A DNA stretch of 64,000 bases from Actinomycetota bacterium (lineage in GTDB: Bacteria; Actinomycetota; Acidimicrobiia; Acidimicrobiales; Ilumatobacteraceae). Below, piece by piece: positions 9,556-64,000 of this stretch; positions within the stretch are counted from its first letter, which is position 1; every line of letters begins with the position of its first letter. Where the stretch lies: positions 14,376 to 78,375 of the forward strand of contig JBDKIV010000240.1 in the NCBI GenBank assembly GCA_039796935.1, given 5' to 3'. The translations under genes and the position numbers were made by a program. Under the pieces are notes generated by a model. It was not told the origin of the DNA and searched no databases. It worked only from the letters and a program-made list of their open reading frames with translations.

Positions 9556-10563
9556 TCAGGCGGGCACGGGCGATTCGCCGTGCACCCACACCACGCTACG
9601 CATGGGCATCAGGTCGAGCGCCCAGATCATGTCCATGGCCGGCACGCTCACGCGCACGCAACCGTGCGATGCCGGGTAGTTGGGGATGCTGTTCGACCCG
9701 TGGACAGCGACACCGCCGCGGAAGTACTTCGGTCGGTAGATCTCGCCCAGATCGCCCTCCCACCAGCCTTCGGGGCGCTCACGATCGACCTTCCACAGAC
9801 CGCTCGGGGTGAGCGACACACCTCGCTGGATCTCGCCGGGCGTGTTCTGATCCTCTTCTTCGTACGGGAGACCGTTGCCGGTCGAGGTGTTGAGCACCAT
9901 GACGGTCTTGCCGGCACGGATGACGAACAGCAACTGCTTGGTCTTGTCGACCTCGATGAGATCACCCGTGTCCGCGGTTCCGCGTGCCCGCTCGGGGAAC
10001 ACCGCCAGGTAGGCGGCGGTGTCGGGGTCGACCTCGCCCGACGCCCGCAGACCGAGGTACTTCTGGAACGCCATCACTGCCTGACGCGTGGTCAACCCGT
10101 ACTTGCCGTCGACACCGCCGTGCCAGAAACCCAGGTCGAGCAACCGTTGCTGGACGGCCTTGGTCGCCTCGCCGCTGCGCGAACCCACCGGGTCGATCGC
10201 GTACGCCGCCGGGCCGATGATCTCGACGTTCGGGGCGAGCGTCGTCGTCGGCGCGGGTGGCGCCGTCGTCGTGGTGGTGGTGGTCTCGGCGGTGGTCGTC
10301 GTCGCCTCGGTGGTCGTCGTCTCGTCGAGGGTCGTGACCGGAGCTTCGGTCGTGGTCGGCGCGGCCGTCGTGGTCGGGGCGACCGTCGTGTCGGCTGTCG
10401 AGGGCGGCAGCGGCGAGACCGGGACCGTTGCCGGCACCGCGGCCTCGGCCGTCGGACCGACCTCGGTCGAGCACGACGAGACGAACGCCACCGTCAACGG
10501 CAGCGCGATCAGCGGGGCGACGCGAATGGCCCGGCGAGGGAATCGGGGATTTCGCAACGACAT
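9556..10563 (-). CDS. L,D-transpeptidase lipoprotein with peptidoglycan-binding domain
   Basis: YkuD catalytic motif HGSNSIPNYPASHGCVRVS. PG_binding_1-like VQQRLLDLGFWHGGVDGKYGLTTRQAVMAFQ. Lipobox VSSC and a Thr-rich linker. Start uncertain (ATG 10563 or GTG 10599). Confidence 0.8.
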   Translation of the reverse strand: MSLRNPRFPRRAIRVAPLIALPLTVAFVSSCSTEVGPTAEAAVPATVPVSPLPPSTADTTVAPTTTAAPTTTEAPVTTLDETTTTEATTTTAETTTTTTTAPPAPTTTLAPNVEIIGPAAYAIDPVGSRSGEATKAVQQRLLDLGFWHGGVDGKYGLTTRQAVMAFQKYLGLRASGEVDPDTAAYLAVFPERARGTADTGDLIEVDKTKQLLFVIRAGKTVMVLNTSTGNGLPYEEEDQNTPGEIQRGVSLTPSGLWKVDRERPEGWWEGDLGEIYRPKYFRGGVAVHGSNSIPNYPASHGCVRVSVPAMDMIWALDLMPMRSVVWVHGESPVPA

Positions 10564-53255: not shown

Positions 53256-54439
53256 GCGCCCCGTCGACCACGGTCAGCGACCGCGAACTCGTCCTGCTGC
53301 GCGCCGCCCTCGCGTCACTCGGCCTCGACGAGGTGCAGGGCGAGGCGTTCCACCTCGACGTCGACGAGCTCGGCCGTCACTGGATCGTCCAGAACGACAC
53401 CGGCCAGATGGTCATCGACCGGCACGACCCCGACAGCGTCGACGGTCTCGAGGGCAACTTCGCGATCCCCGAGCGGATCCGGCGATTCGGCGAGTGCTTC
53501 AGCGCCGACGGCCTCACCCTCTCGGTCGTCGACTCGACCACCGTGGTCGCTCAGATCGGAACGGGCATCGGCTCGGTCAGCGTGGCGGTCGACCTGGTCG
53601 CCGGTGACCGGCAGCCGACCGAGCCGTGGCAGGTGCTGCCCACCTCGACCGCCGTCGTACCCGCCCGCGAGTTCATGCTCATGCTCACGGCGATCAGATC
53701 GATGCCGACCGGGCTCGAACCCGCCGAGTACCCGGTACCGCCGATGTGGCTCCAGATCGAACGAGGGACCGTCGGCCTGCACGTCGACTGGAGCGACTTC
53801 GTGCCGAGCCGGGGTACCTACCGACTCGCCGCCTCGTCGACCGAGGGATCCGCGACCGTCGCCATCCCGCACGGCGCCATCGAAGCGCTGCTTCGCCAGC
53901 TCCCCTGGTTCGGCGACGACAGCGAGGACGACAGCCAGGGCGACAGCGACCTGACCATCGAGATCGGCGCCGTTCGCCACCGGGGCGACGTCGGTGACGC
54001 GATCAGCGTGGCCGGCGACGACTGGAGGGTGGTGTTCTGGACCCTCCACCCGCTCGAGCACCGCTGGGGCGCACCGATCAACCAGATCCTCACCGAGGCA
54101 GGGATGACGGTGGTCGACCGCGATCAGGGCGAGTGGATCGTCTCGAGCCGCTCGATCGATGTCCGCGTCGTGCTCCACCACGGCCACCCCGACATCGCCC
54201 GCGTGAGCGCCCTGCTCATCGACGGCGCCGACGACAACATCGATCTCCTCCGCGAGCTCAACCAGCTCAACGCCGCCTCGACGGGAGTGCGGCTGTGGCT
54301 CGAGCACGGCGCCGTGCACGCCGCCGCCGACGTGCGCTGCAACGACCTCAGCCCGTTGCCGGCGGTGATCCGCCAGGTCGGCACGACCGCACATCAACTC
54401 GCCCCGGTCCTCGCTGCACTGGCGACCAGCGGCGAGTGA
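53252..54439 (+). CDS. Hypothetical protein (395 aa); C-terminal part resembles YbjN/T3SS-chaperone-like sensory transduction regulator fold
   Basis: Strong GC3 bias. The C-terminal segment VRVVLHHGHPDIARVSALLIDGADDNIDLLRELNQLNAASTGVRLWLEHGAVHAAADV looks YbjN-like by eye only. Confidence 0.5.
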   Translation: MSAPSTTVSDRELVLLRAALASLGLDEVQGEAFHLDVDELGRHWIVQNDTGQMVIDRHDPDSVDGLEGNFAIPERIRRFGECFSADGLTLSVVDSTTVVAQIGTGIGSVSVAVDLVAGDRQPTEPWQVLPTSTAVVPAREFMLMLTAIRSMPTGLEPAEYPVPPMWLQIERGTVGLHVDWSDFVPSRGTYRLAASSTEGSATVAIPHGAIEALLRQLPWFGDDSEDDSQGDSDLTIEIGAVRHRGDVGDAISVAGDDWRVVFWTLHPLEHRWGAPINQILTEAGMTVVDRDQGEWIVSSRSIDVRVVLHHGHPDIARVSALLIDGADDNIDLLRELNQLNAASTGVRLWLEHGAVHAAADVRCNDLSPLPAVIRQVGTTAHQLAPVLAALATSGE

Positions 54440-54460
54440 CGGCACCGATCACACGGCGGC

Positions 54461-55339
54461 TCACGCCGCACGTGCCCAGAGCCGACGGCCGGCGAACCGC
54501 CAGATCAACCACAGACTGACCGACACCCCCGCCAGGCCGAACGCGGTCTGGGTGACGAACCCGGCCCACGTGTCGGCCCGCTGGAACGAGGGCGCCCGCT
54601 CGACCCACGCAGGACCGCCCCACGTGAGGTCGATCGTCTGGGTCGCCCGCTCGGGATTGATCAACCTCGCCCACAGGAACCAGCCGAAGATGCGACACGC
54701 GCCGTAGACGAAGTAGGCGCGGTACACGGCGAGCATCACGGTCTCGGTCATCGAGAACCGGCGCTGCAGCCGACCCCAGACCGGATCGGCGGGGACGATG
54801 CGGTCGCGGAAGAACTGCCGGGTGAAGACCCGCGGCCCACCGAGCGCGAGGCAGAGCCAGAAGAAGTCCCACGCTCCGCCCAGGCTCGAGAAGTAGGCGG
54901 CCGCGTCGCCGTACCGGCCCTCCTGCGCCGCATACGCCCACATCCCGGTCGAGTAGTGCTGGGTCGTGAAGGGGAACAACAGCATCGTGCCCACCGAATC
55001 GAAACAGTCGGTCAGCACATGCGCCCACCCGCCGAGCAGCAACCCGAGACCCCACGCCCGGTTCCGGCTGAACGCCAGCACCACGAGCACGACCACCACG
55101 ATGAACAGCAGCGAATGCGTCGGCCCGACACCGGGCCAGCCACGGTGGTACTTCCATGGTTCCTGCGCCTTGATGAGCGTCATCGAACCGATGTTCAACC
55201 CGTAGACCGGCAACTTCGTGAACAGGTCGGGCAACAGACAGCCCAGCAGCACGGCGAGGTAGCTGATCTTCGACTTCAGCCGTCCCTCGAGGTGGTCCTG
55301 GAGGAAGTAGCTCTCGAGTTCGTGAGCCGCCCAGCTCAC
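54461..55339 (-). CDS. Membrane-bound metal-dependent hydrolase-like protein (YdjM/DUF457-like)
   Basis: Polytopic. His-containing motifs THSLLF and WAHVLTDCFD. The family call is tentative. Confidence 0.5.
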   Translation of the reverse strand: MSWAAHELESYFLQDHLEGRLKSKISYLAVLLGCLLPDLFTKLPVYGLNIGSMTLIKAQEPWKYHRGWPGVGPTHSLLFIVVVVLVVLAFSRNRAWGLGLLLGGWAHVLTDCFDSVGTMLLFPFTTQHYSTGMWAYAAQEGRYGDAAAYFSSLGGAWDFFWLCLALGGPRVFTRQFFRDRIVPADPVWGRLQRRFSMTETVMLAVYRAYFVYGACRIFGWFLWARLINPERATQTIDLTWGGPAWVERAPSFQRADTWAGFVTQTAFGLAGVSVSLWLIWRFAGRRLWARAA

Positions 55340-55506
55340 CGTTCACCCCGATCGAACCGACCGAACAGGCGCGTGCTGACGATGACACAGACGACGACCA
55401 GAGCCGGTCCCACGATCCAGTTGAGGATGACCGTCTGGACCAGCGCACCACCCACCACGAGGATCACGACCGCCAGCAGATACCCGATCTTCTCCGACCG
55501 AGCCAT
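55336..55506 (-). CDS. Small membrane protein (56 aa, two TM helices)
   Basis: MARSEKIGYLLAVVILVVGGALVQTVILNWIVGPALVVVCVIVS. 4-nt overlap with the downstream gene. No clear RBS. Confidence 0.45.
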   Translation of the reverse strand: MARSEKIGYLLAVVILVVGGALVQTVILNWIVGPALVVVCVIVSTRLFGRFDRGER

Positions 55507-55520
55507 GATCGACGGACGCC

Positions 55521-57257
55521 TCAGCCCGCGTCGCCGACGGACGACCGGGCCGGGAGCTCGCACGCCTGATCGGTCTCGATCCGCTCGTGCAGGATCGGGC
55601 ACGCATGAGCACCGGCACCCCACGACGGGAACACCGACGAGTACAGGCCCCCGCCGCCGGCGACCGCCACCAGGATGTGGTCGGGGCTGGCGATCGCGTG
55701 GATCTCGTCATCGGGATCGCCGCGCGGCACGAACATCGGGTTGAGCGACTGGAGCCGTCCCCGGCGGTTGGTCGCCAGTCGCTGTAGTTCGACCTGCACC
55801 TCGCGCCGGCCGAGACCTGCACGTGCGAGCACCTGCGCATGCTCGGGATTCAGCAGCACCGCCGCCGAACCGACCCGGAAGAACGCGTTGTTCGAACCCG
55901 TCGTGGCGATCACCGCGGCCACGGCGCGCAGCAGGCGGTACGCCGAATCGGGGTCATCGGCGTCGTCGACGAACACGACCGAGTGCGGGGCTTCGACACC
56001 CACGACGGTCACCACCGAGTCGGACGGCTCGAACCCGACGGCCACCGACAGCGGCTCCCACGGCGACTCGGCCTCGGCCTCGGCCAGACACATCGAGAAC
56101 TTGCCGGGATGACCGAGCAGCGCCATGTCGGACACACCCGGCCTCGCCCCGCCGATGTTGATCATGCACAGGCGCAATGCTCGCCCGATCGAGGCATTGG
56201 CCCGGTGGCCGGGCCCGAGCGCACCGAAGCCGCTCGCCACCCCGCACGCTGCCGGCACGGGACCGTTCACCACCACGAGCGGCGACACCGAGTGCGTCGT
56301 GCTCTGCACTTCGGACAGATCGAACTCGGGACGCAGCAGGGCGCGCAGCCCAGCCACCACGATCGGCATGTGATCGGGGAGACAGCCGGCCATCACCGCA
56401 TTGACGGCGACCGACTCGATGGTCGTCGCCGACCCGAGCGGCCCCATGATCCCGAGGTCGATCGAGCCGTCGAGACCGGTGGCCACGACGAGCCGCTCCA
56501 CACGCTCGCGAGTCGGCACGATCACCGGGAACCCGTCGGTGCAAGCCAGATCGTGCAGCAACTCGAGCGCTTCGGACTCGTCGGAGGCGGCCAGCAACGT
56601 TGTGTCGGCCTCTGACCGCGCCTGCGCCTGGTCGGGCTCGACCGGTGCCCCGACCGCGCCGGGCGCATCGGTCGCGTCGGTCGCGTCGTCGGGTGAGTGA
56701 GCCGGGTTGTCGGGCGACGCTTCGCCACGGAGCACACCGATGAGCCGCGGAGCCAGGTCGGCCGCGAGCGCTGCCATGGCCGACGCCCCCGTCCCTGCCA
56801 CCGGGTGCGGCAACCGGAGCCGGGGCACGTCGGGCATGCCGTTCGAGAGGGCGACGAGATCGCCCTGCTGCCAGAACGCCTCGGTGACCAACGCGACGAC
56901 AGCGCGGTCTCGACGAGCCAGTTGGATCCCGTCACGCACGGTGCCGGAGGTGCAACTGCCTCAATGTCCGTATGCGGCGATCACCGCCGTGCAGGTGGCT
57001 GCGATCTCGGTCAGTTGCTCGTCGCTGGCCAACGCCGACGCGTTGCCCTTGTTCCAGACCCGCACCGACACATCAGGCATCGCCGCCTCGAGCGCCGCAC
57101 CGATGTGCTCGACGAAGGCCACCGAATCGGGAAAGCCGTTCGCGAACAATCCGATCGTGTCGCCCGGACCGATGGGCGCCGAACACGTATACGGGTCGAT
57201 CGGTCCAGCAGGTCGGCCGCGCGGATCGTGGAACTCCATGCGTGCAGCTTCCCACAT
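55521..57257 (-). CDS. UGSC-family selenoprotein candidate (in-frame TGA at 56961-56963) fused to an uncharacterised C-terminal domain of about 330 aa
   Basis: Track ORFs 56961..57257 (…CTAVIAAYGH) and 55521..56939 are in the same frame, separated only by TGA. The read-through gives AAYGH-U-GSCTSGTVRDGIQLARRD. Start at ATG 57257, or at 57239 (GGGAAG upstream). Confidence 0.6.
56919..56958 (-). other. Hand-folded extended hairpin 3-42 nt after the UGA; possible SECIS-like element
   Basis: In the mRNA sense, the lower stem is CAGUUG/CAACUG (perfect 6 bp, plus-strand 56919-24 and 56953-58). The upper stem is CCGU/ACGG capped by the pentaloop GCGUG. Not tool-validated. Confidence 0.25.
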
Positions 57258-57266
57258 CGGGCGAGA

Positions 57267-59240
57267 TCACGGCTCGAGCGAGAGCGCCTCGGCCAGACCC
57301 GTCATCCGCTCGGCCGGGGCCGCCACGCAGGCGCCGACCGCGCCCGCCGAGCCGACCACCACGAGATGCCGGCGCGCCCGTGTGACCGCCGTGTACAGCA
57401 GCTCGCGACCGGCGAGCGGCGAAGTCGCCGGCGGGAGGATCACGACCACCGTCGGGTACTCCGAACCCTGGCTCTTGTGCACCGTCATGGCGTAGGCCGT
57501 CTCGACCTGCTCGAGTTGCACGAGATCGATCGGGCGCGGATGGTCGGGGGTGCCGAACACCGCCACCAGGTCGCCCTCGCGGCGCACCACGACACCGACG
57601 TCGCCGTTGGCGAGACCCAGGCGGGGTTCGTTCCGAGTGACCAGCAGCGGCCGCCCCGGGTACCACAGATCGTCGCCCGCACCCATCCACCGGGCGGCGA
57701 GTTCGTTCCACCGCGACACCCCGTACGGTCCGTAGCGATGGGCGCACAGGATTCTCGCCGCGCCCGACGACGTCAGCGCCTCAGCGAAGTCACCGGCCTC
57801 GGCAGCCGCACGAACCCTGACCAGGACGGGCAACATCACGGAGCGAACGGCATCACGAGCCGTCCGGTCGGGCGCCTCGTCGACTTCGACGAAGGTGATC
57901 TCGTCGGTCTCGCGTCGCAACACCTCGAGCGCCGGGGCACCCACGTCGGTGTCCGGCGCCGGCTCTCGCTCGGCCAGACGAACCGCATCGGCCACCGCGG
58001 CGATCGCCGACTCGGCGCCGTAGCGATGGACACGGTCGAGCCTGACCACGCGACCCGCCAAGGGACCCGACCGCTCGCCGGCACGGACCATGTCGCCGAG
58101 CACGGCACCCAGCTCGACGCTCTCGAGTTGGTCGGGATCACCGATCAGCACCAGACGGGCATCGGGGCGCAAGGCCTCGCACACACGGGCGAGGAGTGGG
58201 GCCGAGACCATCGAGGTCTCGTCGATCACCACGACGTCGTGCGGCAACGGATCGGAGCGATCGTGGCGGAACCGGTGCAGTTGATTGCCCTTCGGGCCGA
58301 GCAAGCGATGAACGGTCGTCGGTGTCAGCGCAGAGAGCTGAGCACGCACCTGCTCGGGCAGAGCAGCCCGCATGTCGTCGGTGGCCAATGCGCCATCGAT
58401 CGACTCCTTCAGACGCGCCGCTGCCTTGCCCGTGGGTGCCGCGAGCGCAACACGTACGGGTCGCCCGGTCTCGGTGGCCTGGGTCATCAGCACGGCGAGG
58501 ATCCGCGCCACCGAGAAGGTCTTCCCGGTGCCGGGCCCTCCGGCGATCACGGCGAACCGCCCGGAGAGCGCCAGGTCGGCGGCCACGCGCTGCCGATTCG
58601 CCACGCCCCCCGACGTGACCGCAGGGAGGAGGCGCTCGAGGAGTTCGAGCACGGCGGGCGTGACGGCGGGCTGGACAGCGGGCGAGTGATCGGCCGATGC
58701 CTGCCCGTCGGGTGCAACCGTCACGCCACCCTCGACCGAGAGGTGACGCAGCATCGATGCGACGACACACTCATCGACCCAGTGTCGCTGCAGGTACACG
58801 CTGGTACCGCGGAGCACCAGCGGACGAGCATCGAACTGCGGCACCGCGTCCCACGACTCGGTCAGCCGCACCACCACGTCCGGTGCACGGTGCAGCGCGT
58901 CGAGCCACTCGCCGACATTCGGCCACGGAAGGTCTCGATCGACGGCACCGAGCGTCGGGTCCGACGGGTCGATCGGATCGATCGGATCGACGAGCTCGCG
59001 CCTGCCCACCTCGCGTTCGACCACTCGGGCCAGCTGACCCAGCGTGGCGCACGAATGACCATGACGGGCCGACCAGGCCGCCATCGCCACGGCGAGGAGC
59101 ACGAGCTGGTCGGAGCACCCGGACGACCGCGCCACCCACGCCGCCAGATGCACCTCGGCAGGCCCCAGAACGCCCGCCTCGACGAAGGGGATGAGCGACT
59201 CCGCTTCGGCCGGGACGAACGGCGACGACATGCTGCTCAT
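57267..59240 (-). CDS. recD: Exodeoxyribonuclease V alpha subunit
   Basis: Walker A AGGPGTGKTF, DETSMV (Walker B), C-terminal TVHKSQGSEY. ATGA overlap with recB. Confidence 0.85.
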   Translation of the reverse strand: MSSMSSPFVPAEAESLIPFVEAGVLGPAEVHLAAWVARSSGCSDQLVLLAVAMAAWSARHGHSCATLGQLARVVEREVGRRELVDPIDPIDPSDPTLGAVDRDLPWPNVGEWLDALHRAPDVVVRLTESWDAVPQFDARPLVLRGTSVYLQRHWVDECVVASMLRHLSVEGGVTVAPDGQASADHSPAVQPAVTPAVLELLERLLPAVTSGGVANRQRVAADLALSGRFAVIAGGPGTGKTFSVARILAVLMTQATETGRPVRVALAAPTGKAAARLKESIDGALATDDMRAALPEQVRAQLSALTPTTVHRLLGPKGNQLHRFRHDRSDPLPHDVVVIDETSMVSAPLLARVCEALRPDARLVLIGDPDQLESVELGAVLGDMVRAGERSGPLAGRVVRLDRVHRYGAESAIAAVADAVRLAEREPAPDTDVGAPALEVLRRETDEITFVEVDEAPDRTARDAVRSVMLPVLVRVRAAAEAGDFAEALTSSGAARILCAHRYGPYGVSRWNELAARWMGAGDDLWYPGRPLLVTRNEPRLGLANGDVGVVVRREGDLVAVFGTPDHPRPIDLVQLEQVETAYAMTVHKSQGSEYPTVVVILPPATSPLAGRELLYTAVTRARRHLVVVGSAGAVGACVAAPAERMTGLAEALSLEP

Positions 59241-62200
59241 GCGTCACCCCCGAGCGCGAGGACCTGATCGAGCGCCACGATCGTGGCCGGCGGCGGCTCC
59301 CAGGCGAAGACGCCGTAGGGGCGTCCGTCGGCCAATGGTGTCTTCGCGCCGACCATTCCCCTGACGAACAGATAGGCGATACCACCGAGGTGAACTGCCG
59401 GGTCGTACCCGCGGAGCCGCCAACGGAGATACCGGTGCAGCGCCACGCTGTAGAGCAGCGCCTGCAGCGGGTAGTCGTGATGGGCCATCGCCGCAGGCAG
59501 CCGGTCGGGATGGTACGAATCCAACGGTCGCGCCGCGCCCCGCTCGTGCAGTCGATTGGTCTTGTAGTCGACCACCACGAATCGCGGAGCTCCGACCGGA
59601 CCGGGCACCCGGAGGACCGCGTCGATCGAACCCTGCAGGTAGCCGGCGATCTCGACGGAGAACCGGCCGTTGGCCAACTGGTCGGCGTACGGACGCTGGG
59701 GGTCGTCGCCCGGAAGGGTGTCGAGCAGCACCTCGCCGATCCGTCGAGCCGGTACACGATGCCGGGTTCCGGCCAGTGGGAGGTCGAAGGCCAGCTCTGC
59801 GAGCCGGTCCGTCGGACCGATGTCGGCAAGGCGGCGGCCACCGAACAACGGCCCGAGTGGCGACGCGAGCATGGCGCTCAACCCCGCCACCAGTTGTGCC
59901 GGCTCGACCGGCAGCCGATCTCGCTCGAGTTGGTCGTCGACACGGGCGGCCAAGTCGTCGGCGAGCGTGACGCTCGTCGGGTCGATCCCCTCGAGCACGG
60001 CGTGCACCAGATTGCCGAAGGCTCGGCCGCCGACCACGTCGGCGAGCGGCATGGCCACCGCGTGGTCCCCCGGCTCGGGCCACACCGCGTCGAGGCCCGG
60101 CCCCTGACCGAGCGCCTCGCCGCCGATGGCGGTGGCGGTGCTCGACTCGTCGGCTCCACCGACGACCGGTGCTGCATCGTCGACCGAGCCGAAGGTGTGT
60201 TGCCGGGTTCGCGACACCGAACTGAACGACCAGCGCTTCCAGTTCGGGTCGATGACGACTCGGTCGCCGGGGTCGGCGACCGTCAGCACCGGCGGCGGTT
60301 CGAGCACTGCGGGCCCCGACCACCGGCGTTCCGACCCGACCCGCGGACAGACCGACACCTCGATCAGCCCACCGCTACGGTCTGCCACCGATCGCAGCGC
60401 CTCGTCGGCGGTGTCGTCGTCCATCGGTACGGACGCCTTGACCGCTTTCAACGTGGGTGCGCCACCGCGTGCCGTGGCCTCGACGAGGGCCGGGCGCGAA
60501 CCGCGCGGTTCGCCAGCCTCGTCGCGGTCGAGGAGCAGTGTCGACAGTGCCCACTGACCGACGTCCTTGCACGGCGCCCACCACACGATCGTGCGGTGCC
60601 GAGCACGGGTGAGGCCCACGTACAGCAACCGGAGTTGATCGCCGAACTGCTCGATGTGGGTCCGGTGCTTGCGAACGTCCTTGGTCTCGAGTCCCGCTCT
60701 CCAGCTCCAGTTCGATGCGATGTCGACGACCCGAGTCGCCGTGCCGTCGTCGTGGTAGACCGACGGACCGAACGAGGACGCCTTCTGCCACGAGAACGGC
60801 ATCAGCACGATCGGGTACTCGAGACCCTTGCTGGCGTGCATCGTGGTCACCTGAACCGCATCGGCATCGGAGTCGATCCGGCGCATCTGCGGATCTCGCT
60901 CGTCGGCGTCACCCGAGCCCGAACGCAGCCGGTCGAGGCAACGGCGGAGGGTGGCCGCCGAGGTACCGGACCCGTGCAGTTCGGCAGCCATCAACTCGGC
61001 GATGTGGTCGAGATCGGTGAGATCTCGCTCACCCCCTCGCCGGTTCAGCAGTGTGGTGACGACACCGCTGTCGGCCCGGACGCGGTCGTACCAGGCGAGC
61101 AAGGGCATGGCGGCGAGGTCGGCGGCCCATTGGGCGCACTGGCGCTGCAGGCCCGCGATCAACTCGTCCGAACCGGTCTCGTTCGGGTCGAGTTCTTGCG
61201 GTGTCCGGCCGAAGAACACTCCGAGCCCGGCGGCTCGCACCGTCGACGACGACGAGGGTCGTTCGATCGCAGCGAGCAACCGGGTCCACTCGTGGCCGGC
61301 CGGCGACGACAGCACGCTGCCGGTGCGCGTTCGCACGGCGGGCACCCCCGCATCGAGCAGCGCCCGCACGACCAGGTCGGCACCCGAGTGGGTCGGCACC
61401 AGCACGGCGATGCTCGCGGGCGTGACGGGCTTCGACCCCTCCGCCCCCTCGATTCGATGGTGGTCGAGGAGGTCGATCACGACGTCGACGAGATCGGCGA
61501 CGATGATCTGGCGCGCGTCGCCGGTTGCCACGAGGTCGGTGTCGCCGGGGTCTCTCGGCACCCGCCGAATGACGAGCGGAGCGCCCGGCTGCAGTGCCCG
61601 GTCGCGCGCCGACGGCGCTGCGTCGACCGGCATCGCCACGATCCGGTCGTCGCCGAGCGTGACGTCGGCGAGCAAGGCATTGGTCGCGGCGACCGTGTCG
61701 CGGTCGCTGCGGTAGTTCGTGGCGAGGTGCACCGTTCGCTGACCATCGGTCGCGGACAGGTAGGTGTGCACGTCGGCACCACGGAATCGGTAGATCGCCT
61801 GCTTCGGGTCGCCCACCAGCACCATGTCGCCGCGGAAACCCCGATCGAAGATCTCCCACTGCACCGGATCGGTGTCTTGGAACTCGTCGACCAGGACCAG
61901 GTGGTAGCGCTCGTTGAGCGCGTCGACCACCGCCTGGCCGTGAACGGGGTCGACGATCGCGTCTCGCAGGCCGGTCAGGAGATCGTCGAAGCCCTGTTCG
62001 TTGCGGAACCGACGTCGACGACCGACCTCGGAGGCGGCCCGGTGCACGAGTTCGATCCAACCCGCCAACTCCGGGGCGTCGTCCGCGGTCGGAACGACCG
62101 ACGATCCCGAGTTGGCCAGGACGGCGGTGACCGACTCGACGAGTTCGGACAGCACCTTGCCCGGGGTGGTGCCGCTGTCCCAGTCGAACCGCGATGCATC

Positions 62201-62695
62201 GTCGAGCAACGAGGCGACCACGAGGTCGCGACAGACCTCGTCGATCACCGCCTTGCCGCTGCTGCCGAGCGAACTGTCGAGCGTTGCGGCCGACCGGACG
62301 CCCAGTTGGCGAAGCGCCTGTTGACAGAACCCGTGAATGGTCGAGATGGTGGCGTCGTCGAAGCTGGCGATCGCCTGCGCGACCCGACGGCGGCGATGTG
62401 CCCGGTCGGCGGCGTCACCCTGCAGCAACACCTCCATCCACGAGCCGTCGGGCGCAACGCCAGCCTCGAGTACCTCGAGCGCATCGACCAATGCCCGCCT
62501 CGACCGGTCGCGCAGCTCGGCGGCCGCTGCCTTGGTGAAGGTGACCACCAGCAGCGACGAGGCCGGGCGGTCGAGTTCGGCCACGTGGCGAACCACGAGC
62601 GCGCTCAGCGAGTAGGTCTTGCCGGTGCCGGCACTGGCCTCGATGACCAGTCGCCCGCGCGGCAGCTCTCCTCGAAGATCGAGGTGCGTGGTCAT
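59237..62695 (-). CDS. recB: Exodeoxyribonuclease V beta subunit
   Basis: ATG 62695 preceded by GGGGGA. EASAGTGKTYSL (Walker A), VDEFQDTDPVQW, and the C-terminal nuclease motif GSIDAV...VVDYKTN. Confidence 0.85.
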   Translation of the reverse strand: MTTHLDLRGELPRGRLVIEASAGTGKTYSLSALVVRHVAELDRPASSLLVVTFTKAAAAELRDRSRRALVDALEVLEAGVAPDGSWMEVLLQGDAADRAHRRRRVAQAIASFDDATISTIHGFCQQALRQLGVRSAATLDSSLGSSGKAVIDEVCRDLVVASLLDDASRFDWDSGTTPGKVLSELVESVTAVLANSGSSVVPTADDAPELAGWIELVHRAASEVGRRRRFRNEQGFDDLLTGLRDAIVDPVHGQAVVDALNERYHLVLVDEFQDTDPVQWEIFDRGFRGDMVLVGDPKQAIYRFRGADVHTYLSATDGQRTVHLATNYRSDRDTVAATNALLADVTLGDDRIVAMPVDAAPSARDRALQPGAPLVIRRVPRDPGDTDLVATGDARQIIVADLVDVVIDLLDHHRIEGAEGSKPVTPASIAVLVPTHSGADLVVRALLDAGVPAVRTRTGSVLSSPAGHEWTRLLAAIERPSSSSTVRAAGLGVFFGRTPQELDPNETGSDELIAGLQRQCAQWAADLAAMPLLAWYDRVRADSGVVTTLLNRRGGERDLTDLDHIAELMAAELHGSGTSAATLRRCLDRLRSGSGDADERDPQMRRIDSDADAVQVTTMHASKGLEYPIVLMPFSWQKASSFGPSVYHDDGTATRVVDIASNWSWRAGLETKDVRKHRTHIEQFGDQLRLLYVGLTRARHRTIVWWAPCKDVGQWALSTLLLDRDEAGEPRGSRPALVEATARGGAPTLKAVKASVPMDDDTADEALRSVADRSGGLIEVSVCPRVGSERRWSGPAVLEPPPVLTVADPGDRVVIDPNWKRWSFSSVSRTRQHTFGSVDDAAPVVGGADESSTATAIGGEALGQGPGLDAVWPEPGDHAVAMPLADVVGGRAFGNLVHAVLEGIDPTSVTLADDLAARVDDQLERDRLPVEPAQLVAGLSAMLASPLGPLFGGRRLADIGPTDRLAELAFDLPLAGTRHRVPARRIGEVLLDTLPGDDPQRPYADQLANGRFSVEIAGYLQGSIDAVLRVPGPVGAPRFVVVDYKTNRLHERGAARPLDSYHPDRLPAAMAHHDYPLQALLYSVALHRYLRWRLRGYDPAVHLGGIAYLFVRGMVGAKTPLADGRPYGVFAWEPPPATIVALDQVLALGGDA

Positions 62696-64000
62696 GGTTC
62701 CCCCGTCTGTCCGACATCGGCGCCCGAGTCGGATTCGGGGGGCATCGCCGCCGCCTGCATCGCCTTCTTCGTCTTCGCGTCGAGCTTGGTCTCGGTCTCG
62801 TCGATCGCCGCCCGGTAGGCACCCCAGATCCACGATGCGGCGCGAGCGGCACACCCGCCGGTCGACCCGCCACCGTGACCACCGGGGCCGAGCAACCAGT
62901 CGAGTCGCTCGGGGACCTCGACGGCCAGGAAGTCGTCGAACGACACCTCGGACCACACCATCGCGGCGTGCTCGTCGTAGCCGATGTCGTCACCCTCGAA
63001 CGCAGCGCGCGCCTTGGCCGCCTGACCGGCGGCAAGCTGGAACGACGTCTCGTCGAGCAACGGCACCACGTCGTGGCGAGCCCACCACAGCACGGTGATG
63101 GCAGCCCGGAGCAGGCGATCGACCGCATCGCCGTCGGTCTCGTCGCCCCGGCGCACCCTGAGCCGATAGGTGACCGGCGCCGTACCCGACGAAGGCCTGC
63201 CGATGACCACCGCCGTCCAGTCGAGGTCGGGGCGCTCCCGGTGCAACACCGCCAACCGGAGTGCGGCGGTCAGGCGGTGCCACGGCTTCGTCGTGCCGTA
63301 CCGGACGTCGACGAGGCACCCGTCACGATCACCGACGACCAGGTGACCGATGGTGCCCGACAGCTCGACCCGTTCGAGCCGACCCGCGATCTCGACCTCG
63401 ATCGCCTGCTCCACCTCGATGGCCTCGACCGCATGCACCGGAACACCGGCCACCTGCGCTGCCATCTGCAGGAGTTCGGCCTGCTCGCTGACGGTCTGGA
63501 TCGTCGCCGAACCGAGTTCGCCCGGCGGGAGCCAGCCGTGAAGCCGGACCGCTTCTCTCCACTCGGCGACGTCGGTGACGCTCGAGTCGCTGCCGAGCGC
63601 TGCCAGCAACTCGCGGCCCAACTGCGCCCGGTGCAGTGCACTGGCTTCGACGGGCAGGCCGTCCTCGAGCGCAACGGACTCGCCCGGTAGCCGGATGTCG
63701 AGTCGCCGGCGGAGATAGACCTGGGCGGGACGTCGGACTGCGTCGAGCAGTTCGTCGAGGTCGACGTGACTGATCGGCGCAGGCGGCAGCGCCCACCGAG
63801 ACCAGGCATCGCCTGCATCGAGCGTGCTTGCCGACGCCGAACGCTTCGCCAGCGCTGCGTCGAGCATCGCGGGGTCGAACGTGAACGGTCCCGGTCGAGT
63901 CGTCCCCAGCCCGCTCGGCCGGAGCGCTCGATCGTCGAACCCGTGGCGGGGGTGACGCACGACGACCGGGCCGAGTTGGTCGTCGAGGTCGACGAGGTCG
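62692..64000 (-). CDS. recC: Exodeoxyribonuclease V gamma subunit, C-terminal part (5' end beyond window)
   Basis: The frame stays open from 64000 (no stop upstream of the track start at 63960). It overlaps the recB start by 4 nt. Position and length are consistent with recC; the sequence itself is only weakly recognised. Confidence 0.7.
   Translation of the reverse strand, partial: DLVDLDDQLGPVVVRHPRHGFDDRALRPSGLGTTRPGPFTFDPAMLDAALAKRSASASTLDAGDAWSRWALPPAPISHVDLDELLDAVRRPAQVYLRRRLDIRLPGESVALEDGLPVEASALHRAQLGRELLAALGSDSSVTDVAEWREAVRLHGWLPPGELGSATIQTVSEQAELLQMAAQVAGVPVHAVEAIEVEQAIEVEIAGRLERVELSGTIGHLVVGDRDGCLVDVRYGTTKPWHRLTAALRLAVLHRERPDLDWTAVVIGRPSSGTAPVTYRLRVRRGDETDGDAVDRLLRAAITVLWWARHDVVPLLDETSFQLAAGQAAKARAAFEGDDIGYDEHAAMVWSEVSFDDFLAVEVPERLDWLLGPGGHGGGSTGGCAARAASWIWGAYRAAIDETETKLDAKTKKAMQAAAMPPESDSGADVGQTGEP

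Follow-up and report, generated by a model that had tools for sequence, protein, structure and literature searches.

A 64,000-nt stretch of an Ilumatobacteraceae genome (contig JBDKIV010000240.1, positions 14,376 to 78,375; hereafter the window, with a GC content of 70%) carries, on its minus strand and directly after recD, a gene that joins a domain of the UGSC family to a large partner domain. The UGSC domain continues across a single in-frame TGA codon, this TGA is conserved in related species together with the nucleotides just 3' of it, and the UGSC gene occurs in an obligate pair with the gene of its partner. Taken as a whole, the locus is very probably a UGSC gene whose UGA is decoded as selenocysteine (Sec) and which has become fused to its partner, the product being a putative two-part reductase. 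The features of the gene are as follows.

55521..57257, minus strand: whole fusion gene (UGSC module, linker and partner module), ending in the stop TGA at 55523..55521
56730..57230, minus strand: UGSC-family module, residues 10-176 (Pfam PF24696, NCBIfam NF041046)
56961..56963, minus strand: in-frame TGA, read as Sec, residue 99 (TGA in 79/79 loci; Cys in Cys-type homologues)
56952..56954, minus strand: Cys102, the C of U-G-S-C, presumed resolving cysteine (invariant in 77 orthologues and 20 diverse UGSC modules)
56929..56947, minus strand: conserved core of a candidate selenocysteine insertion sequence (SECIS), CCG.CAC[CGUGC]GUG.CGG (RNAalifold consensus, 75 sequences)
56919..56958, minus strand: extended 40-nt hairpin, whose lower stem CAGUUG/CAACUG is lineage-specific (minimum-free-energy fold)
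56583..56729, minus strand: Asp/Ala/Pro-rich linker, residues 177-225, standing where relatives have a stop/start overlap
55524..56582, minus strand: partner module, residues 226-578, from an uncharacterised family of ~350 aa (stand-alone, 350-370 aa, in relatives)
56382..56384, minus strand: Cys292 in NAVMAGC, the sole partner-module cysteine invariant across 20 diverse fusions (alignment A3)

The UGSC gene and its in-frame TGA

The minus strand from 57257 to 55521 forms one frame of 578 codons, in which the TGA at 56963..56961 is the sole internal stop and lies in the translated context ...TCTAVIAAYGH*GSCTSGTVRDG. A mechanical list of open reading frames (ORFs) gives the frame as two halves, 56961..57257 and 55521..56939. 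An earlier note on this DNA had proposed that the halves are a single frame broken only by the TGA, and that the frame encodes an N-terminal module, an Asp/Ala/Pro linker and a large C-terminal domain; translation of 55521..57257 bears out the first point, and all three parts are present as described. Two ATG codons could begin the gene. The second, at 57239, appears to be the likelier start because the sequence that it opens, MEFHDPRG, resembles the MEFLDPRG with which the Ilumatobacter coccineus orthologue begins, and the ATG at 57257 represents an upstream alternative. The product from ATG 57239 is ~572 aa long; the Sec is residue 99 in the numbering used here, or residue 93 when counted from ATG 57239.

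For the UGSC profile searches, the Sec of the window protein was entered as C. The match to Pfam PF24696 (UGSC) scores 131.2 bits against a cut-off of 25, spans profile positions 3-170 of 172, and runs unbroken across the TGA. NCBIfam NF041046 (UGSC_fam, equivalog) gives 88 bits (E 6e-25). Membership in the UGSC family, which the earlier note had proposed from the U-G-S-C context, is upheld by both profiles: the domain matches from end to end, U-G-S-C is in place, the TGA supplies the first residue of the motif, and homologues with Cys exist. In an alignment of 20 diverse UGSC modules, C94 (Sec/Cys), G95, and C97 do not vary, and S96 hardly does. A point against the assignment is that the window protein misses the equivalog cut-off of NF041046, which is 125 bits. 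Other partner-linked UGSC proteins also score under this cut-off, at 96-120 bits (I. coccineus 96, Streptomyces murinus 96.5, Cys fusions 114-120), and because every one tested scores below 125 bits, the partner-linked forms are not doubtful matches but make up a divergent branch of the UGSC family, one that lies outside the equivalog as defined by NCBI. The low score, together with the position of the domain inside a 572-aa fusion, sets the window protein apart from the usual members of the family.

The UGSC selenoprotein family was described by Zhang and Gladyshev in 2008 (PMC2398784) and is treated in reviews (PMC9312934, PMC13188914); a 2026 review still gives no function for it. UGSC proteins rank with the most abundant selenoproteins of aquatic metagenomes: the Global Ocean Sampling (GOS) metagenome yielded 255 Sec forms and 21 Cys forms (PMC2398784).

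For comparison with relatives, the C-terminal domain was scanned against one genome per GTDB species, which yielded a relative in 482 species, and the best 80 loci, nearly all from Acidimicrobiia or unclassified Actinomycetota, were compared. Seventy-nine of them, the window counted, had enough upstream sequence for the UGSC codon to be checked. Every one of these (79/79) has a UGSC gene directly upstream of the partner with TGA at the aligned codon, and none has Cys. Distant homologues do have Cys at the Sec position, as CGSC or CGNC in the proteins P0141, P0136, and P0178 and within LDCGSCASW in S. murinus. Of the two states that the earlier note had envisaged for orthologues, TGA holds throughout the Acidimicrobiia loci, and Cys appears further away.

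The nucleotides around the TGA are also under constraint at the RNA level. Among 77 distinct orthologues, G105 (GGC), V107 (GTG), R108 (CGT), and D109 (GAC) are each encoded by a single codon, and T106 is ACC in 96%. The codon entropy across G105-T106-V107-R108-D109 is 0-0.24 bit, compared to 1-2.2 bit for the majority of the remaining conserved degenerate codons. All 7 near-invariant codons, out of 58 conserved degenerate ones, fall between -3 and +10 codons from the UGA, and by our own calculation the chance of all 7 falling in those 14 columns is ~1e-5. On the 5' side (56964..56972), Tyr96 as TAC and His98 as CAT, both counted among the 7, are each near-fixed, at 96% of the 77, compared with only 56% for CAC at His151, which suggests that the context 5' of the UGA is constrained as well.

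An RNAalifold consensus of 75 sequences places a core hairpin at 56947..56929, 13 nt after the UGA, with all 6 pairs present in 73-75 of the 75; the window contains a single copy of this motif. Synonymous sites frozen over a hairpin core would be the signature of a bacterial SECIS, making the core a candidate element. The earlier note had drawn a 40-nt imperfect hairpin in this region, and this does form in the minimum-free-energy fold, with the lower stem CAGUUG/CAACUG and an upper helix, UCCG.CAC[CGUGC]GUG.CGGG. Conservation in relatives is confined to the apical 19 nt, and the upper stem CCGU/ACGG with the loop GCGUG in the drawing is an alternative fold of the same bases as the upper helix. 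In 75 relatives the lower stem is paired in only 56.9% of cells, and the apparent covariation at one pair did not go beyond controls, so the stem is not counted as conserved.

SECIS elements of the Escherichia coli fdhF type present a SelB-binding apical hairpin ~11 nt after the UGA. The core hairpin of the window is reminiscent of these elements in that it is a short apical stem-loop within the coding sequence that starts 13 nt 3' of the UGA, contains G and U in the loop, and shows constraint at the RNA level. It differs in its stem of only 3+3 bp around a G.A mismatch, which shows no covariation. The Sec UGSC fusions of other phyla have a different hairpin at the same position, a strong one of 9 bp, compared to which the core stem in the window is weaker.

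If the TGA instead ended translation, as a genuine stop or through a nonsense mutation, the locus would encode a 98-aa fragment and a separate 472-aa gene product without Sec, and several results weigh in that direction or against a SECIS at this site. The public annotation calls only the ORF after the TGA, deposited as the 472-aa 'hypothetical protein RI958_2496' (P0001). ARAGORN found no tRNA, tRNA-Sec included, in the 64-kb window, and tblastn with E. coli SelA, SelB, and SelD as queries gave no match in the window or in the compared loci. The energy of the hairpin is not significant relative to shuffled sequence (z = +0.99 and -0.36); because it is no better than chance in 70% GC DNA, stability is not used as evidence here. 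Searches of Rfam returned no SECIS or other RNA family, at gathering scores for the whole window and by E-value for 56800..57100, and the core hairpin shows no covariation across the 75 sequences, its bases being invariant. A genuine stop is nonetheless extremely unlikely. The UGSC domain runs through the TGA without interruption; all 79 of 79 species retain the TGA, which is flanked on either side by sequence under strong purifying selection and aligns with the active-site Cys of the Cys homologues; the synonymous sites just 3' of it are frozen; and relatives possess SelA, SelB, and SelD as well as many selenoproteins. I. coccineus and I. nonamiensis are SelD+ SelA+ SelB+, with 15 and 10 selenoproteins, respectively (PMC5029168 Tables S1/S2); a search of the literature on Ilumatobacter and selenocysteine found nothing relevant in the main texts. 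Since the 64-kb window holds no Sec machinery, the argument for Sec decoding in the source metagenome-assembled genome (MAG) proceeds from these relatives, and we infer that the UGA at 56963..56961 is decoded as Sec in vivo.

A windowwide scan for ORF pairs bridged by TGA identified two further TGA codons between long frames with high G+C at third codon positions, at 9558 (-) and 44507 (-). Their contexts, PA*RP and RP*PV, contain no redox motif, and they probably reflect adjacent genes that share a frame by chance.

The partner module and the fusion junction

No Pfam or NCBIfam model matches the partner module, whose family comprises 4515 cluster representatives (50% clustering, E<=1e-3). In relatives, the partner is a stand-alone protein of 350-370 aa. 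The possibility raised in the earlier note, that the C-terminal domain exists elsewhere as a separate neighboring gene, is realized in 77 of the 79 loci, and in most of the 79 the ATG of the partner overlaps the UGSC stop by 4 nt, as ATGA. Stop/start overlaps of this form are typical of translational coupling. The junction in the window has lost the stop and contains neither ATG nor GTG, and a linker of ~49 residues rich in Asp, Ala, and Pro takes their place; the region of the former ATG now reads ACA ACG TTG, and no stop lies near the junction in any frame. A possible internal TTG start remains, so that some separate partner protein may be produced. Within the linker, a 9-nt tandem repeat (56655..56688 (-), 3.8 copies) encodes (D-A-T)n, and slippage at this repeat may have contributed to the frame change by which the genes became joined.

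The only other in-frame fusion of UGSC and partner among the 79 loci is found at L008 3701-5056 (CAVZPA010000024.1). Its junction is unlike that of the window, with GTG where the partner ATG would be and the UGSC frame shifted upstream, and it may represent either a fusion of independent origin or an indel error. In an Ilumatobacteraceae MAG (L019 3989-6100), the partner ORF extends to 703 aa, perhaps through fusion with the gene that follows it; in 19 related loci, that gene encodes an AMP-binding enzyme.

The separation of the two genes in 77 of 79 related loci might be taken to mean that they are separate in the source organism too, and that the fusion is an artefact of assembly or sequencing, such as an indel in the GC-rich repeat linker. 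The 9-nt tandem repeat would offer a site for such an error, a scan of JGI metagenome contigs did not recover the exact 24-nt junction, and the different junction of L008, possibly itself an indel error, could be added on the same side. An artefact is nevertheless very unlikely in view of the same in-frame junction in three assemblies: that of P0001 and those of the JGI proteins P0272 and P0273, each one residue off the window protein. The latter two come from independent JGI assemblies, and the single-residue changes that they carry elsewhere in the protein are different. Moreover, the loss of the ancestral ATG is not explained by an indel error, and the junction is free of nearby stops in all frames. 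The fusion is real, and it arose separately inside a clade in which the genes are normally split.

Fusions of the two domains, with Sec or Cys and in either order, are common in other phyla. By our count, they account for about a third of the top 150 representatives of the partner family. Full-length fusions of 530-590 aa with a complete UGSC domain have either Cys or no redox motif, and proteins of 405-470 aa represent the part of Sec fusions that follows the TGA. In three genomes, a call of 90-96 aa corresponding to the N-terminal half of UGSC precedes a call of 411-437 aa in the same frame across the TGA. Gene callers systematically split Sec fusions of UGSC and partner in this way, into calls of ~90 aa and ~415 aa (L084, L085, L086, L090, and others), and many public PF24696 proteins of ~415 aa are probably truncated selenoproteins. 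The order of the domains is reversed in the fusion P0133, and reversed split pairs also exist.

A 'UGSC/Unknown_1' fusion was reported in 2008 from the GOS metagenome (PMC2398784 Fig. S1A). It resembles the window protein in that a UGSC selenoprotein is joined to a conserved uncharacterised domain that also occurs alone in some aquatic organisms; the likeness is one of description, and Unknown_1 may correspond to the partner domain. It is set apart by the separate origin of the window fusion in a clade with normally split genes. The UGSC family and UGSC fusions have been known since 2008, and this locus adds one fusion.

Several paralogous arrangements were observed among the compared proteins. 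At L085 (10880-12198) and at the P0331 locus, a second paralogous pair lies nearby in reversed order, in which a partner-like gene of 344-345 aa overlaps a UGSC selenoprotein gene (GD*GSCSSGS) by 4 nt. An additional partner-like paralogue in L086 has another residue in place of the Cys that is otherwise invariant (AMAGLGP). Proteins of ~710-740 aa (P0130, P0131, P0140, P0146, P0152, and P0226) contain two or three matched partner-domain stretches and look like tandem duplications of the partner; the UGSC domain is absent from P0130, the one such protein scanned.

Predicted structure and possible function

An AlphaFold2 model of the partner domain alone reached a pLDDT of 78 and a pTM of 0.81, and its best Foldseek match in the PDB had an E value of 0.59. 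The full-length Cys fusion P0141, which is 39% identical to the window protein, was modeled from 74 aligned sequences with a pLDDT of 93.9 and a pTM of 0.93, the latter suggesting a fixed arrangement of the two domains. Foldseek returned only weak PDB matches for this model (E ~1e-3, 150-190 aligned columns), to MsuE, flavodoxin, WrbA, and the flavodoxin domains of flavodiiron proteins, with target-normalised TM scores of 0.4-0.58. Because the partner-only model had no such matches, they are assigned to the N-terminal module, which is predicted to be a five-strand alpha/beta domain with a flavodoxin-like fold; in the model, the U/CxxC motif is located between a beta-strand and the following helix. 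The resemblance to flavodoxin, WrbA, and MsuE is at the level of the fold only, with 7-16% identity. The model lends no support to the thioredoxin-like fold suggested for UGSC in 2008, and no thioredoxin-fold protein is among the 50 Foldseek matches listed. A profile built from alignment A4 found no match among PDB sequences.

Gene neighborhoods in cultured relatives offer a functional context. Streptomyces murinus CP066774 (L091 6001-12549) and Nocardioides sp. Kera G14 CP085839 (L092) share one operon, consisting in order of a Cys-type UGSC gene, the partner, a flavoprotein similar to thioredoxin reductase (TrxR), a family III CoA-transferase, two acyl-CoA dehydrogenases, and an enoyl-CoA hydratase. 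The partner homologue is 40% identical to the domain in the window (E 2e-76), the TrxR-like flavoprotein matches TIGR01292 with 274 bits, and a divergent gene resembling FAD lactone oxidases lies beside the operon together with a MarR regulator. An acyl-CoA theme also runs through other neighborhoods, which contain acyl-CoA dehydrogenases, CoA ligases, MaoC dehydratases, a thiolase, a thioesterase, and AMP-binding enzymes and are otherwise variable.

With the loss of the UGSC stop and the overlapping ATG of the partner, the two modules have become joined by the repeat-containing Asp/Ala/Pro linker. In the scheme proposed here, the flavodoxin-like N-terminal module would carry a selenol/thiol redox pair, U99-G-S-C102, at the turn from strand to helix, and this pair would serve a C-terminal catalytic module with one invariant cysteine, C292. 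UGSC and partner would in this way form a two-part reductase. The TrxR-like flavoprotein found beside the pair in some relatives probably re-reduces the Sec/Cys pair, and the neighboring genes would point to the catabolism of acyl-CoA or organic acids. We infer both the redox relay and the class of substrate.

Some observations fit this scheme poorly. No TrxR-like gene adjoins the gene in the window. The acyl-CoA theme rests on few neighborhoods: when neighboring ORFs were clustered across 82 Acidimicrobiia loci, only an AMP-binding enzyme recurred, in 19 of the 82. In addition, several full-length fusions in alignment A3 (P0153, P0191, P0210, P0218, P0222, P0236, and P0247) lack a C/UxxC motif and keep C292, which indicates that a redox-active N-terminal module is not always needed by the partner; a purely redox-carrier model does not explain these motif-less fusions.

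Alternatively, UGSC could itself be catalytic and remotely related to the Sec segment of GrdB/PrdB, with the partner binding the substrate in the manner of GrdE/PrdA. The Sec would then attack the partner-bound substrate, and a selenide-sulfide with C102 would be followed by thioredoxin-type reduction. When 20 UGSC modules were searched against NCBIfam, the only recurrent secondary matches were to the selenoprotein B family, namely TIGR01917 (GrdB) for 5 of 20 (best E 8.7e-4), NF040794 (GrdF) for 3 of 20, and TIGR01918 for 2 of 20. These matches score ~11-14 bits against cut-offs of >600 (TIGR01917/TIGR01918), PF07355 gives no match, and no member reaches any family threshold. The similarity is repeatedly located around the Sec: module 1, the only match returned with coordinates, aligns there with positions 337-401 of 431 in TIGR01917, and hhalign of UGSC modules with the PrdB/GrdB proteins of the GOS supplement superposes the Sec/Cys columns over 71 columns at E 3e-4, its probability being only 39.7%. 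The order of beta-strand, UxxC, helix, and then E..GIPTV is shared, the helix ending in E..G(I/V)P(T/A)V in the comparison with GrdB/PrdB (TIGR01917, TIGR01918, PF07355). The TrxR-like gene of the S. murinus and Nocardioides operon would also fit, given that grd operons contain a TrxR-type gene. In contrast to GrdB, which is ~430 aa long, the UGSC module has only ~170 aa; its partner resembles neither GrdE/PrdA nor any family in Pfam or NCBIfam, no GrdE/PrdA-like, GrdA, or GrdC/D partner accompanies it, and some fusions have no U/CxxC motif at all. The likeness is suggestive as a lead for remote homology and is not evidence of membership. A two-part reductase with TrxR-type re-reduction is favored here, and a GrdB-like catalytic Sec, although the main alternative, is a possibility to which we give distinctly less credence.

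Genomic context and significance

The genes on either side of the fusion gene are the following.

57267..59240, minus strand: recD, directly upstream (Pfam RecD_N, AAA_30, UvrD_C_2)
59237..62956, minus strand: recB (Pfam UvrD-helicase, PDDEXK_1)
Beyond recB, minus strand: 3' part of recC (Pfam RecC_C)
55336..55506, minus strand: 56-aa hydrophobic ORF, downstream, between the fusion gene and ydjM
54461..55339, minus strand: YdjM-family membrane protein, downstream (Pfam YdjM, 52 bits)

The layout given in the earlier note is confirmed: the gene starts 9 nt (ATG 57257) or 27 nt (ATG 57239) after the end of recD at 57267, and a small transmembrane ORF and then a YdjM-type gene follow on the same strand, in the form of the 56-aa hydrophobic ORF and the Pfam YdjM match. 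By tblastn in the 80 loci, the presence of this ORF and ydjM after the partner gene is shared with the closest relative only (L001/L002). Co-transcription with recD is possible, and plausible because the gap is 27 nt, the strand is the same, and a search of 54300..57700 revealed no site resembling a promoter or terminator. The same three facts could be read as a sign that the position after recD reflects a functional link with RecBCD, for example redox control of recombination or repair. Although the gene does stand directly after recD, as the earlier note had emphasized, the adjacency recurs in none of the 80 related loci, where tblastn found no recD or recB within 4 kb of the pair, and neighborhoods elsewhere are catabolic or varied; a link with RecBCD is accordingly a reading to which we attach almost no weight. 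Conserved in 0 of 80 related loci, the adjacency is specific to this lineage and probably incidental.

More generally, the locus and its relatives give the UGSC module a fixed partner, and the repeated fusion of the two, in either order and in several phyla, constitutes a Rosetta-stone link between them. New here are the strict pairing of the genes, the frozen core of the candidate SECIS, the prediction of a flavodoxin-like fold, a partner without a solved relative, and the leads provided by GrdB/PrdB and by the TrxR operon. The Cys-version operons in cultured S. murinus and Nocardioides, together with the single invariant cysteine of the partner as a target for mutation, represent experimental handles, and the splitting of Sec fusions by gene callers is flagged as a systematic mis-annotation.

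The clade that hosts the window includes cultured aerobic marine and soil Actinomycetota, which are not Stickland fermenters. A broader proposal, which we regard as speculative and rather doubtful, is that UGSC and its partner constitute a widespread, unrecognised two-component (seleno)reductase, with a Sec module of GrdB/PrdB stock, TrxR-like re-reduction, an acyl-CoA or organic-acid substrate, and an unsolved catalytic fold. If true, such an enzyme would be an aerobic counterpart of the Stickland-type selenoenzyme reductases, and it would explain the abundance of UGSC proteins in aquatic metagenomes.

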